64,000 bases of DNA from a candidate division FCPU426 bacterium (GCA_963738405.1 CAVTWJ010000012.1:32001-96000), one strand, 5' to 3'; shown: positions 6,905-43,771, numbered from the stretch's first letter. The notes: generated from the letters alone by a model not told the origin. Numbers and translations are program-made.

Positions 6905-7699
6905 ATGTTTTTCCGAGGAAATAGCTTGAACCTGAATGTTGAAGTTATTGGCAATGGTCGGCCCTTCCTATTGCTCCACGCCTTTCCACTGAATCACGAG
7001 ATGTTCCAAGCCATTCACCTACCTGGGTATAAACTTATCCTGCCTGATTTCCCGGGTTTTGGCCCAAAGGGAACCATTGACCCAAATTTCAGCTTGGAAA
7101 TGGCGTCTGATAGCCTTAAAAATGGCCTGGATGAGATTTTGCCACCTACGGAGAAAATCGTATTAGGCGGAGTTTCGATGGGTGGTTATTGGGCTTTTGA
7201 ATTTCTTCGGAAATACCCCGAAAAGGTTTCTGATCTTGTTTTGATATCGACCAGACCAGGAATTGATCGCTCTGAAGCAAAGCAAAAGCGATTAGAGATG
7301 GCCTATAGAGTTGAGAAGGAAGGCATTGCATATCTTCCGGATCTGTTGATGCCGGGTCTATTAGGCCCTAAGACCCTCAAAGAAAGGGCCATCGTAGTTG
7401 ATCGTGTTCGAAATTTGATCCTTTCGGGCAGTCCTGAAGGGGTCGCGGCTGCCCAAAGGGCGATGGCGAGCCGCCGGGACCAAACCGACTTGCTTGCTAA
7501 AATTGACTGTCGAGCCCTTATTTTGGCGGGCGCTGATGACCAGTTGATTCCAATAACCGAAGCGAAGGCGATGGCCATGGCCATAAAGAACAGCCGCCTC
7601 GAGATTTTGGAGCAGGTAGGCCACTTGATACCGCTCGAAACTGCAAATTTGTTCGAACAAAAATTGTGTAATTTCCTAACTCCGGACGGTCAAAATTAA
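6905..7699 (+). CDS. Alpha/beta hydrolase (PcaD-like)
   Basis: LLHAFP, PDFPGFG, GVSMGG nucleophile elbow, GADD, GHL. Confidence 0.9.
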   Translation: MFFRGNSLNLNVEVIGNGRPFLLLHAFPLNHEMFQAIHLPGYKLILPDFPGFGPKGTIDPNFSLEMASDSLKNGLDEILPPTEKIVLGGVSMGGYWAFEFLRKYPEKVSDLVLISTRPGIDRSEAKQKRLEMAYRVEKEGIAYLPDLLMPGLLGPKTLKERAIVVDRVRNLILSGSPEGVAAAQRAMASRRDQTDLLAKIDCRALILAGADDQLIPITEAKAMAMAIKNSRLEILEQVGHLIPLETANLFEQKLCNFLTPDGQN

Positions 7700-7730
7700 A
7701 AAGCAAAGTGGAAATTTTCGCGATCATTCA

Positions 7731-8081
7731 TTGGATTTGACCTGCACCATATGCGGGAAAAAATACCAATATGTTTATAAAAACGGAAAATCTTCAGGCA
7801 GCAATAAGAAAAAATGTAACTCATGTCACGCCAATTCAGGGCGATTCGCTAAAAAGAATAAGATGATTGACTATAAAGGCGGGCGTTGCCAACTTTGTGG
7901 ATACAATAAATGTAATCGCGCTTTAACCTTTCATCATCTTGACCCAGCAAAGAAAGATTTTAATTTTGCGGGTAATCACTCACTCAAATGGGAGACCATC
8001 AAAAACGAGTTGGATAAATGTATTTTGCTTTGTCAAAACTGCCACTGTGAAGTCCATCCGGGTGTCGCCAAATACCCTTAA
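7731..8081 (+). CDS. Small Zn-binding HNH endonuclease-like protein
   Basis: KGGRCQLCGY...LTFHHLDP...KCILLCQNCHCEVH, plus an N-terminal CxxC...CxxC; resembles phage-type HNH proteins. Confidence 0.8.
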   Translation: MDLTCTICGKKYQYVYKNGKSSGSNKKKCNSCHANSGRFAKKNKMIDYKGGRCQLCGYNKCNRALTFHHLDPAKKDFNFAGNHSLKWETIKNELDKCILLCQNCHCEVHPGVAKYP

Positions 8082-8100
8082 ATTTCACTTGAATCCCTTC

Positions 8101-8136
8101 TTGTATTTCATATAACTATAATTATATGAAATACAA
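8101..8136. other. Putative dif-like site-specific recombination site (perfect 15-bp inverted repeat, 6-bp spacer)
   Basis: TTGTATTTCATATAA-CTATAA-TTATATGAAATACAA. The inner 11-6-11 core resembles dif: right arm TTATATGAAAT vs E. coli XerD arm TTATGTTAAAT. Overlaps the recombinase ATG. Confidence 0.7.
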
Positions 8137-9163
8137 AAATGACTCCCGGCCCCCAAAAGAATCAGAAAATCTTAATGAATTAGCTCCTTACAAAGATTTC
8201 CTTGCGCTTTGTAAATCTAATCATACTCGGTATAGCTATCATCAGGATCTGCGGGTTTTGAAACAATTTTTGGATCAAAACGGCTTAAATTCTCCGGTTC
8301 TGGCCAAACCTATCGACTTAACCCGATTCGCAGGTGAATTAATAAAACCCGGGCATACACCCATGGGAAAGCCACGTTTATCCTATTCTACCCGTTCAAT
8401 GAAACGTATCTTGGCCTCAACTCGTTCCTTTTTTCGCTTTTTAGCCTCCATCCAGCTAATTGCTACCGATCCTACGGCCGTATTTCACAATTTAAGCATC
8501 CGAAGTCCACATCGTAATCCTCGCCCATTGTCCCCAAGAGACCGTGAAATATTACTTCGAAATCTAAAAACTAATGATTTGCAAAACATGAAAATCAGCC
8601 TCTCGGTTCTTCTAGGCTATCACTGCGGCCTACGAGTCTCTGAAATCGCCCATTTAAAACTTAATGATTTGGATTTTACCCGAGGTTTAGTAACAGTCAT
8701 TGGCAAAGGCGACAAAGAAAGAATCGTTCCTATGACGGAGTCACTCAAGGAACTTGCAAAAAAATATTTTACTCAAATTCAAAACGAAGACCTTTATTTA
8801 TTTCCAAGTCCACGAACAAAGGATAAGCCAATCCATATTCGATACTTGGAAACTTGGGTTAAAACGGCAGCCCGATGGGCTAACTTGGATAAAAACGAAG
8901 AAATCACAGTTCATGTTCTGCGCCATTCCTTTGGTACCCAGCTTGCCGAATCCGGGGCCAGCGTTTATGAAATTCGAGATCTCATGGGGCATTCCAGCAT
9001 CGTGGTAAGTGAAAATTACGTCAAATTGGCTTCCACCAAAGCCACTCAAGCCCATCAAAAGGCCTTTCCTGTGACTTGGACAGCGATGGCACTCCAACTG
9101 GAGGCAGCCAATGGCCCTCAGTCGGTCTTGGCAAAACTAAGACAACTCAAAGGTTCAAGATGA
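8126..9163 (+). CDS. XerC/XerD-like tyrosine recombinase
   Basis: N-terminal SAM-like domain (S..T..SY..DL; RSFFRFL); catalytic residues R (GLRVSE), K (GKGDKER), HxxR (HVLRH), H (MGHSS), Y (ENYV). Confidence 0.93.
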   Translation: MKYKNDSRPPKESENLNELAPYKDFLALCKSNHTRYSYHQDLRVLKQFLDQNGLNSPVLAKPIDLTRFAGELIKPGHTPMGKPRLSYSTRSMKRILASTRSFFRFLASIQLIATDPTAVFHNLSIRSPHRNPRPLSPRDREILLRNLKTNDLQNMKISLSVLLGYHCGLRVSEIAHLKLNDLDFTRGLVTVIGKGDKERIVPMTESLKELAKKYFTQIQNEDLYLFPSPRTKDKPIHIRYLETWVKTAARWANLDKNEEITVHVLRHSFGTQLAESGASVYEIRDLMGHSSIVVSENYVKLASTKATQAHQKAFPVTWTAMALQLEAANGPQSVLAKLRQLKGSR

Positions 9164-9533
9164 GGTTTCTGGTGAAAAAAAGATCTTTAGGCGAAGGTGG
9201 CAAAGCTAAGTCACCTACTATCCGACGATTCTTTTTCTTTAAAAGCTCGGATTAACGTTAGAAAAAAGAATCTGAAATAAAATGAAAAACGTGCCGATTT
9301 TGAATTTAAATGCCTTTTTTTTGAAAGATTATTTTGGTTTTGATTATTGAGTCGAACATTTTTTTCCTGATTTCGGACCACCTGTGAAATGATTTTGTTC
9401 TGCTGTTGAAGCTTAGGGATGCGATGGAAAGAACGCTTGGGGCGGGTTTGAGAAAGAAATTGGGTTCAAAAGTACACTTTTTCTCAATTTATAATGGCAG
9501 CAAAGAGTCCTAAAGTTTTACTTTCAGGGGTAA

Positions 9534-10703
9534 ATGATGGCTTTTTCGTTTCGAACTCCCTCGGATCTCACTCCCAACCCTATTTCCAACCTGATCGATT
9601 CCCTTTCAGAAGAGAAATGGATCGATTTAACGGAGTCCAACCCAACCCACTGCGGCTTCAGCTACCCTCCAACCCTTTTAAAAGACCTTTCGGATCACCA
9701 AAATTTAAGTTATTCCCCCCATTCGGCGGGTATTCCAAGCGCCCGCGAGGCTGTAGCGGCCTATTTAAATGCCAGGGGGTTAACAACCAATGCGGACCGC
9801 ATCCTTTTGACTGCGAGTACCAGTGAAGCCTATTCCTATTTGTTTAAGCTCTTGGGCGAGCCGGGAGATTCCTTTTTGGTTCCGATTCCCGGCTATCCCC
9901 TTTTGGATCATCTCGCGCGTTTGGAATCGGTGCGGCCTATCCCCTATTCATTCAAATACGAGGATGGTTGGCCTCTGGATATAAAAGCTTTCCAAATGAC
10001 AATTAAAGAAAAACATAAAGCCCTAGTGAGTGTTAATCCTCAAAATCCAACGGGCGTCCCATTATCCGACCAGGATCTAGTGTGCGTCTTAAAAGCCTGC
10101 GCAGAGGGACAAATGGCGTTTATTTCGGATGAGGTTTTTTGGGACTTTTTAATCCCCGTCCGCCCATATCGGCGCTTTAACCACCCCGACGTTCTTTCCT
10201 TTCGGCTCGGTGGAATCTCCAAGTCTTTGGGCCTTCCCCAGTTAAAACTCGCCTGGATCGTTATCGACGGCCCGGAGAAATTGGTTTTGGAGGCCAAAGA
10301 ACGCCTCGAATTTATCGCAGATACCTATCTTTCGGTACAAACCCCCGTTCAAACAGCCTTACCCGGCTTGTTTCAATCGGCGGAATCTTTCCAAAGCCAA
10401 GTCCGAACCAGGATCAGTCAAAACAGAAAATGGTTGGAATCAAATCTGAGTGTTTTTCAGGAAAGGGTTCGTTTATGGCCCCTTGAGGGAGGGTGGTATA
10501 ACCTGGTTGAAATCAAGGATTCACCACTCACCGACGAGGAATGGACCTTAAATTTGTTGGAAAAAGAGAAGGTGTTGATCCACCCCGGGTCGTTTTATGA
10601 GTTTCAGGAAGGGTGCTTCGGCGTGATCAGCCTATTGCCGAAACCCAAGGATTTTGAGGAGGGTGTAACCCGTATCGCTCAAAATCTAACGACTATTTTA
10701 TGA
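9534..10703 (+). CDS. PLP-dependent aminotransferase, class I/II
   Basis: NPQNPTG, ISDEVF, GGISKSLGLPQLKLAW (PLP lysine). Confidence 0.9.
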   Translation: MMAFSFRTPSDLTPNPISNLIDSLSEEKWIDLTESNPTHCGFSYPPTLLKDLSDHQNLSYSPHSAGIPSAREAVAAYLNARGLTTNADRILLTASTSEAYSYLFKLLGEPGDSFLVPIPGYPLLDHLARLESVRPIPYSFKYEDGWPLDIKAFQMTIKEKHKALVSVNPQNPTGVPLSDQDLVCVLKACAEGQMAFISDEVFWDFLIPVRPYRRFNHPDVLSFRLGGISKSLGLPQLKLAWIVIDGPEKLVLEAKERLEFIADTYLSVQTPVQTALPGLFQSAESFQSQVRTRISQNRKWLESNLSVFQERVRLWPLEGGWYNLVEIKDSPLTDEEWTLNLLEKEKVLIHPGSFYEFQEGCFGVISLLPKPKDFEEGVTRIAQNLTTIL

Positions 10704-42241: not shown

Positions 42242-43771
42242 TTAGGGAACATATTCCTGCAGGTTGTTGAGGAAGTAATCGGCCACCAGCAGATTGCCGT
42301 TGGGGAGGATGCACACCCCGTCCGGCTGTTGAAAGGCCGTGCCCCCGCCCTCGGAGCCGGTAAAGGTATGAGCGATCGCGGCGGTGCCGGGCACATACTC
42401 TTCAAGCCCCACCACCCCTTCGTCGGCGGCGTAGACGGTCCCGCTGGCGTCCACGCACATTTGGTAGATGAAGTTCCCATTAGGCGTGTTCCAGGTATTG
42501 AGCACCGTGCCCGAATAGTTCATTTCCCAAATGTGGTTATGGCCCGCGGCGGACCCGTTGTCGCACACATAGATATTGTTGGAGGAATCCAGGGCCACCG
42601 AGAAGAGGCTTGAAAAGGCCGTGGAGCCCGCGGCGGTCCAGGTTTTCACGACCGTCATCCCGGCGGAGCTGAGCTCATAAAGGGTGGCGCCCCCCTGGTC
42701 CACCACATAGGCGTTGCCGTTGGAATCGGTCTCGACGTCCTGGATGTCGTTGAACGAGGTGGTGGATTTATTCACCGCCACACCGGCCGAGGTGAACTGA
42801 TAGACCACTTGGGCCCCGCCGGACCCGCCATCCACGACATAGACATTCCCGTTGACCGGGTTCACCGCCTGCGTTTGCGGTTGGATGAAAGCGGTGGTTC
42901 CATATTGGGTCCAAGTCGCGCTGGGGGAGGTGAAATTGGCGACCGAATTAAACACCTCCACATCGCTGGGCTGGGTCACATAAACCACACTCGTTCCCCT
43001 GTTGCAGGCAAGGCCATAGGGCGAAGCGTTGGTCCAGGCGCCCCCGGCTAAGAAATGAAAGGTAGCCGTGGCGGTGGCCGTGGCCGTGGCGGTCACGGTG
43101 GGACTATAGGTGGGGGTAGCCGTGCGGGTGTGGGTGGGGCTGGGCGTGGGAGTGGCCGTGAGGCTATTGGTGGGCGTCAAGGTAGGGGTGACCGTCTCCG
43201 TAACGGTGGGGGTGTTCGTGGCTTGGGCGGTGGGGCTGTCGGTGGGGGTCTGGGTTTGGGTGCTCGTGGGGGTTTGGGTCGGCGTCACGGTGGGCGTGGA
43301 AGTCGGGGTGGAGGTGGAAGTCACCGTGGGGGTGGAGGTTTGGGTGGAGGTGGAAGTCACGGTGGGCGACGGGGTAATCGTGGGGGATGACGTTAGCGTT
43401 GGGGTGTTCGTGATCGTGGGGGTGGAAGTCGGCGTAGGGGTAAGGGTGATGGTATAGGTCGGCGTTACGGTGGGCGTGGAGGTGATCGTCGGCGTGGGCG
43501 TTGAAGTAGGGGTCAGGCTGGGAGTGGGCGAGGGCGTGGGCGTGGGGCTGTTGGTGGGTGTAGGGGAAGTGGTGGCGGTAGGGGTTTTGGTGATGATGGG
43601 GCTAAAGGTCGCGGTGGGGGGCGTGAGGACGATGGTATTGGTAAAGGTGAAGGTCGGGGCCAGCGAGGCCAAGGGGCTGGAAGGATATACCTGGGTGTTG
43701 TTGCAGGCCTGGATGCCGGCCAACAGCAGGGCCGCCAGGGCCCAAAGAATAACTCCCCGTTTCATGTCCAA
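42242..43771 (-). CDS. Lipoprotein with long Pro/Thr-rich linker and NHL-like propeller
   Basis: Lipobox IQAC; about 190 aa of TPT repeats; [26 protein letters not shown] repeats. Confidence 0.8.

Follow-up and report, generated by a model that had tools for sequence, protein, structure and literature searches.

Analysis of a 64,000-nucleotide stretch of DNA from an uncultured candidate phylum (the window, namely bases 32001-96000 of contig 12 in the source assembly G000, which comprises 3.18 Mb in 23 contigs and is 90.66% complete) uncovered a compact module in which a perfectly symmetric dif-like site overlaps the start codon of a divergent Xer-type tyrosine recombinase gene. Judging from its sequence and context, this module probably represents a new lineage of single-recombinase chromosome-dimer resolution. 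The evidence lies in the site and the gene themselves, their joint conservation and the co-variation of the two arms, the uniqueness of the site in the genome, its position at the replication terminus, and the absence of XerC and XerD from the order to which the organism belongs. A distinct single-Xer dimer-resolution module had been proposed in a preliminary description of this DNA, and none of the computational tests that could have told against the proposal did so.

Structure and uniqueness of the dif-like site

The site consists of two 15-nt arms (8101-8115 and 8122-8136) that are exact reverse complements of each other and enclose a 6-nt spacer, and it takes the top position when the inverted repeats of the region are ranked (Table 1). 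The ATG of the recombinase gene falls inside the right arm, and the conserved 11-6-11 core overlaps the coding sequence by 7 nt. The earlier observation of a perfect 15-6-15 repeat overlapping the start codon of a recombinase with the R-K-HxxR-H-Y residues is thus borne out by the sequence, the open reading frame and the alignment of the residues. The 36-mer occurs once, against an expectation of 0 from 100 shuffles, and a search of the whole 3.18-Mb assembly, allowing up to 6 mismatches in 28, recovered no second copy of the 28-nt core. The G+C content of this core is 3/28 (11%), as against approximately 0.51 for the contig.

Perfect 11-6-11 palindromes are not in themselves rare in G000; of its 35, nearly all either resemble terminator hairpins rich in G+C or belong to a single repeated element. 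Hence, the evidential weight comes from the placement and conservation of the site and not from its symmetry alone. No Rfam family matched window positions 7600-9700 at E-values up to 1. As a separate observation, G000 also contains a 28-nt G+C-rich perfect palindrome in at least 9 copies (contigs 4, 11, 16 and 23), which may be a REP-like element.

Table 1. Features of the recombinase-dif module and its surroundings, in coordinates of the window
Feature	Position	Strand	Basis and remarks
Phage-type HNH endonuclease gene, 116 aa	7731..8081	+	phrog_2255, E 3e-26; weak Pfam HNH match
-35-like hexamer	8089..8094	+	Predicted from consensus match; 16 nt upstream of the -10-like hexamer
Perfect 15-6-15 inverted repeat	8101..8136	.	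dif-like conserved core 11-6-11 at 8105-8132
-10-like hexamer	8111..8116	+	Predicted; left arm (inner five bases) plus first spacer base
Central spacer, 6 bp, asymmetric	8116..8121	.	Presumed strand-exchange region; sole asymmetry of the site
Single Xer-type tyrosine recombinase gene, 345 aa	8126..9163	+	ORF, domain, profile, alignment and tree
Conserved ~50-nt block with near-palindromic core	9285..9334	+	Profile search, 42 bits; downstream of the recombinase gene
Gene-orientation switch from + to -, chromosome-arm convergence	10698..10703	.	Strand bias of long ORFs

Conservation of the module and co-variation of its arms

Orthologues of the recombinase, with 52-73% identity, are present in 29 of the 30 other genomes of the family and in the sole genome of the sister family (30 of the 31 others of the order); the single family genome without one is 63% complete. 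Contig ends truncate two of the orthologous loci; the 5' end is assembled in the other 29, and in all of these an 11-6-11 inverted repeat lies directly before or overlaps the start codon. All of these loci belong to one order of the candidate phylum. The two arms match perfectly (11/11) in 14 loci, at 10/11 positions in 10, at 9/11 in 3, and at 8/11 and 7/11 in one locus each. The palindrome reported in the preliminary description is therefore kept beside the homologues, with compensatory changes in both arms.

The pattern of variation is structured in that the inner bases of the arms are invariant, while the outer six vary between lineages with both arms changing together. Changes on both sides are seen at 8 of the 11 positions, and 93.8% of the cells in the alignment are complementary. 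None of 500 shuffles reached the observed co-variation score, and sliding the partner arm by 1-3 columns reduced pairing to 34-40%; since shuffles can be beaten by kinship without constraint, the slid controls and the count of independent arm variants weigh more. The family has at least six to eight natural variants of the arms, each of them kept symmetric, and even within one genus the sites of 73%-identical proteins differ at three arm positions. The identity and co-variation of the arms argue for a single binding specificity.

The spacer is asymmetric in all 29 loci, with positions 2 and 5 invariant. Read on the gene strand, its outer bases are T..G in 20 loci, the reverse complement C..A in 8, including the window, and T..A in one. 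The presence of the spacer in both orientations relative to the gene fits a recombination site in double-stranded DNA and not an RNA hairpin. The overlap with the gene is itself variable, the site being intergenic in most relatives with the start codon lying within the right arm in G000, G020 and G015.

Affinities of the recombinase

The protein contains a SAM-like N-terminal domain (PF02899, E 1.3e-9) and a catalytic domain (PF00589, E 2.7e-31), with no other Pfam domain in its 345 residues; this is the two-domain build of a simple tyrosine recombinase, and an arm-binding domain is absent. The residues R170, K194, H263, R266, H289 and Y298 are invariant in all 18 aligned orthologues. Among the NCBIfam models, XerC (156.8 bits against a cut-off of 335.15) and XerD (155.3 against 329.6) are each matched at about half the cut-off, with E-values of about 1e-46, and XerA (136.4 against 220) and XerS (74.1 against 267) likewise fall short; no curated XerH model appears among the NCBIfam matches. 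When the family profile was compared with solved structures, XerD gave 122 bits, the E. coli protein being the closest, XerA 112 bits and XerH 50.8 bits. As a side observation, a 401-residue chain of 9i5v, which bears the label of the ribosome-associated inhibitor RaiA, gives a full-length match to the recombinase profile (107 bits), and this label is probably wrong for the chain.

In a phylogenetic tree of 64 rows, obtained with a quick search and rooted only at the midpoint, the family forms a separate clade (SH-aLRT 96) that is parted by branches of 1.88 and 1.48 from the XerC and XerD of the phylum, from E. coli XerC and XerD and from the tandem pairs described below; one truncated row and the partial genes of G009, G011 and G019 were left out. 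This placement, together with scores far under the XerS and XerA cut-offs and a score on XerH well below that on XerD, indicates that the recombinase, as read from its sequence, is a lineage of its own outside XerC and XerD, in agreement with the early suggestion of distinctness. Only 25 of 1.84 billion representative proteins are matched at E < 1e-30, and of the 80 matches listed in a metagenome scan with a broadened alignment only 3 are loci of the family, ordinary XerC/D sequences swamping the rest. The nearest proteins outside the clade are metagenomic (P0004-P0008), 38-44% identical and with a characteristic insertion in common; relatives of this type are absent from the other 68 genomes of the phylum.

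Position of the site at the replication terminus

The GC skew of contig 12 is weak, without a clear sign change at the site, and is too weak for placing the terminus; hence, gene orientation, which shows a strong bias in this genome, was used. On this contig, 80% of the long ORFs left of base 42,703 but 22% of those to the right lie on the + strand, and the switch is 2.6 kb from the site. With a score of 5.6 it is the strongest convergent change point in G000, the next (4.3, 3.5 and 3.0) being on other contigs. The dnaA gene, on contig 18, lies near a modest divergent switch, whereas the strongest divergent switch is elsewhere, which indicates that the orientation method is imperfect on the fragmented G000 assembly.

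Two relatives with 99% complete genomes in 5 contigs, G006 and G004, were examined over 200 kb around the orthologous site. In G006 the share of ORFs on the + strand drops from 90% to 7% at 2.3 kb from the site and the skew goes from about +0.07 to about -0.02; in G004 the corresponding drop is from 79% to 24% at 2.7 kb, with the skew going from positive to about -0.06. A terminus recognizable by GC skew, as envisaged at the outset, is thus seen as a sign change near the site in both relatives, but not clearly in the contig of the window itself. On the whole, the site lies within 2-3 kb of a convergent switch in G000, G004 and G006, which supports its position at the replication terminus.

The surrounding locus is stable. 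In all 13 loci of relatives that were compared (11 whole and 2 shortened by contig ends), the sister family included, the gene order is identical, with an outer-membrane assembly-like protein, an unknown protein and a hydrolase followed by the site, the recombinase and an aminotransferase, and then by opposing genes. The retention of the same neighbours in all 13 loci points to vertical inheritance of the locus. The genome also encodes an FtsK with the 4TM, alpha, motor and gamma domains. Within the same locus, a short 6-3-6 inverted repeat (about 9509-9523, + strand) immediately precedes the ribosome-binding site for the aminotransferase; it is kept in 9 of 9 aligned relatives and may be an operator.

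A predicted promoter within the site

Alignment of the 29 loci suggests that the site also contains the promoter of the recombinase gene. The -10-like hexamer reads TATAAT in 18 loci, TATAAC in 7, including the window, and takes other forms in 4, and a TTGNNN hexamer is found at a spacing of 16-17 nt in 21 of the 29. A consensus promoter scan of the window did not list this promoter because its -10 element ends in C. In the window the transcription start would fall within the site, two to four bases ahead of the ATG, so that the message would have little or no leader. Where relatives have other arm variants, the start codon comes 0-4 nt after the arm, and a third group has 12-16 nt between the two, including a ribosome-binding site. 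As the left arm would supply the -10 box, bound recombinase is likely to repress its own gene, and autoregulation is accordingly a likely property of the module; for XerS, autoregulation via difSL has already been the subject of speculation (PMC1914069).

These features raise the alternative that the palindrome is an operator or promoter element only, serving the recombinase or another dimeric regulator, with chromosome dimers resolved elsewhere or never. The coincidence of the left arm with the -10 hexamer and the recurrence of the upstream hexamer are what such an element would display, and symmetric, co-varying arms are to be expected of the operator of any dimeric protein. However, an operator would leave unaccounted the 11-6-11 geometry with its invariant inner arm and conserved asymmetric spacer, the location at the point of arm convergence in three genomes, and the lack of any other dif-like site in G000; further, XerC and XerD have been lost in the order while FtsK retains its gamma domain. 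We therefore regard a purely regulatory role as improbable. Operator and dif functions are compatible with each other, and the best explanation includes both.

Absence of XerC and XerD and the question of a second recombinase

The preliminary description called for a search for xerC and xerD elsewhere in the genome. Across the family, the cut-off of the XerD model is exceeded in 0 of 31 genomes, and the best-represented match is the single recombinase itself, found in 30 of the 31 with about 105-158 bits, the lowest values being those of genes cut by contig ends. The phyletic context was assessed in 60 genomes of the phylum with a completeness of 90% or more, 42 belonging to other families and 18 to this order. 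All 42 genomes of the other families have a match to the XerD model, with 271-370 bits, and 39 of them have at least two unlinked genes in the manner of XerD plus XerC; the 18 high-quality genomes of the order have no XerD-model match above 265 bits. The other families are not entirely uniform: G026 and G060 (families f3 and f14; 100% and 90% complete) have a single XerD-like match (E up to 1e-40, 271-281 bits, ORFs of 364-391 aa), and may represent another departure from the two-recombinase pattern.

The characterization of the recombinase as a lone one holds for Xer-type genes but not for tyrosine recombinases in general. G000 contains phage-type integrases on contigs 1, 9 and 18, the one on contig 18 being broken. 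In addition, beyond the window, three or four tyrosine recombinase genes form a G+C-rich cluster at one end of contig 22 (about 214100-217716). This cluster resembles the 'recombinase in trio' elements as these are described in PMC8138268.

A heteromeric XerCD-like system, in which a second and so far unrecognized recombinase, either one of a tandem pair or a distant paralogue, acts together with the first, is the next alternative. Tandem XerC/XerD-like gene pairs scoring 194-265 bits do occur in 9 of the 31 family genomes (G002, G008, G010, G014, G015, G017, G019, G021 and G041) and could in principle act on a different site. They form a two-branched clade of their own in the tree, are often on short contigs, and are present three times in G002 and as two identical copies in G017. 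Their distribution is sporadic, G000 and the 99%-complete G003, G004 and G006 having none, and they are probably cargo of a mobile element. The second point in favour of a partner is G012, whose site (L023:1470-1497) is clearly asymmetric at 7/11, its left and right arms resembling two different arm variants, and which has an extra, very divergent paralogue of 33% identity (L208:4419-5354, - strand). No dif-like site was found near this paralogue. The asymmetry in G012 is an exception that is not predicted by a strict homodimer model. The identical and co-varying arms argue for one specificity, and a partner recombinase is very unlikely.

Flanking elements and inserted genes

A conserved block of about 50 nt accompanies the module in many relatives. 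It is found downstream in about 24 genomes (27-67 bits), 120-180 nt after the recombinase stop codon, and upstream in inverted orientation in about 17 (17-40 bits), 100-180 nt before the site. The inverted pair brackets the module in most relatives; the window has the downstream copy only, and the profile search found no block in G006, G022 and G025. Outside the window, contig 12 has a weak further copy at 127991-128035, G004 has a third block 21 kb away with the side and orientation of the near copy, and a few more copies are present in the terminus region. The block could be a protein-binding site, such as a fork trap or an accessory site, or could mark the ends of an old cassette, and its link to the module is putative. 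If the blocks are bound by a protein, they might constitute a minimal replication-fork trap or accessory dif architecture, a notion that we put forward only tentatively. We know of no such architecture around dif in any single-recombinase Xer system.

The spot between the hydrolase gene and the site has repeatedly received insertions. The HNH endonuclease gene is present there only in G000 and G023, and its product is 80% identical between the two, as compared with 47% and 66% for the flanking genes, which suggests a mobile, homing-type gene. At the same spot G004 has an NmrA-like gene, G020 an unknown 214-aa ORF and G013 an insertion of 1.4 kb.

That the entire module belongs to a mobile element, as its integrase or resolvase with the attachment site, or is left over from such an element, is hardly credible: gene-plus-site modules are typical of such elements, inverted blocks flank it in most relatives and small foreign genes have been inserted beside the site in several genomes, but it is single-copy with the same chromosomal neighbours throughout the order, its recombinase has no arm-binding domain, no relatives were confirmed in one scan of viral contigs with the protein family, the site region had no match in a phage collection, and no second dif-like site of the kind expected of an IMEX-type integrated element was found within 3 kb in the 12 loci scanned (L049 was left out).

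Relationship to known Xer systems

The sites of the classical dif type have been defined by a length of 28 nt, inverted repeats around a hexanucleotide, low G+C content, proximity to the terminus, a non-coding location and the greatest symmetry at the inner arm positions (PMC2731167). The site studied here shares the 28-nt 11-6-11 layout, a G+C content far below that of the chromosome and the proximity to the terminus. The core in the window extends into the recombinase coding sequence, whereas classical dif is non-coding; in most relatives the site is intergenic. Like XerC and XerD with canonical dif, the module combines a two-domain protein and the catalytic set of residues with this geometry, low G+C content and terminus location; unlike them, it has one protein instead of two, symmetric arms, a gene linked to the site and a separate long-branch clade. 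G000 and its near-complete relatives have one Xer-type gene each, in place of the two paralogues and asymmetric site of the XerCD system. The likeness of the arms to the XerD arm of E. coli dif that the preliminary description suggested is a putative one; a profile of the 29 sites gave no match in two stretches of E. coli sequence.

In Cre/loxP of phage P1, one protein acts on identical inverted arms and direction is set only by the asymmetric spacer. The present module differs from it in arm and spacer lengths and in its chromosomal housekeeping context at the terminus, with FtsK.

The few single-recombinase systems described so far include XerS/difSL, XerH/difH, archaeal XerA and the XerL of Legionellales (PMC1914069, PMC2731167, PMC5357621, PMC9765430). 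The XerS/difSL system of streptococci and lactococci is comparable in that a single recombinase gene lies just downstream of its site at the terminus and FtsK is present (PMC1914069); a site immediately upstream of or overlapping the gene is seen in 29 of 29 loci here, and the protein (345 aa) is close in length to XerS (356 aa). By its profile score, however, it is not XerS, and difSL is described as 31 bp with imperfect repeats (PMC1914069), whereas the arms of the present 28-bp site match each other perfectly or nearly so. In Helicobacter and Campylobacter, XerH is likewise the only recombinase for a site at the terminus, difH, to which its gene is usually linked (PMC2731167, PMC5357621), and difH has been grouped with difSL by site similarity (PMC5357621). 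The profile of the present family scores less than half as well on XerH as on XerD or XerA.

XerL offers a parallel in symmetry, as its dif is reported to have uninterrupted inverted-repeat arms of 10-12 bp, a feature that is stressed as unusual (PMC9765430); hence, the perfect symmetry seen here is not unprecedented. In Legionella, though, dif and xerL are given as more than 400 kb apart (PMC9765430), whereas here the gene abuts the site. XerL (lpg1867) is also described as undetectable by similarity to XerC/D (PMC9765430), whereas the present protein does match these; it is by this description that the two are set apart. Archaeal XerA resembles the module in being a single recombinase with a 28-bp site (PMC5357621) and is the second-best match among solved structures. 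It is reported to act without FtsK (PMC5357621), in contrast to the present bacterial host with FtsK, and the protein is not XerA by the model cut-off. Finally, a subgroup termed 'Cand', made up of Xer-related proteins of candidate phyla and mentioned without sites or function (PMC8138268), might include this recombinase family. A full-text literature search found no description of the gene-site module. Taken together, these comparisons indicate that the module, as far as site and gene can be read, is a new lineage of the known single-recombinase Xer type.

Proposed mechanism

In the dimer-resolution system that we favour, the gene of a single Xer-type recombinase would form one self-contained module with its promoter and the dif site. 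Each of the two identical 11-bp arms would be occupied by one of two identical recombinase subunits, the two copies of the site that a dimeric chromosome carries would synapse at the terminus, and strand cleavage and exchange, presumably by homomeric catalysis, would take place at the edges of the 6-bp spacer. As in Cre/loxP, only the conserved asymmetry of the spacer could determine how the sites align and in what order the strands are exchanged. Delivery of the sites would probably fall to FtsK, which may also license the reaction, and recombinase seated on the site would at the same time block its own promoter.

Implications

The module presents a new combination of traits, namely the gene-site linkage of XerS and XerH, the uninterrupted symmetric arms of XerL and the 11-6-11 geometry of XerCD. 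Asymmetry confined to the spacer raises the question of what sets the order of strand exchange, and identical subunits raise the question of how FtsK could activate one of two. The -10 box within the site would make for a compact and testable autoregulatory circuit. The natural arm variants are possibly orthogonal recombinase/site pairs, a doubtful prospect at present; if true, they may serve as orthogonal recombination pairs with 28-bp lox-like targets.

How single-recombinase systems arose from or replaced XerCD was treated as an open question in a 2017 review (PMC5357621). The lineage described here would offer a clean natural case, in which the only Xer of one order, a divergent one, has been passed down vertically at an unchanged place in the terminus, while the other families of the phylum keep XerC and XerD.
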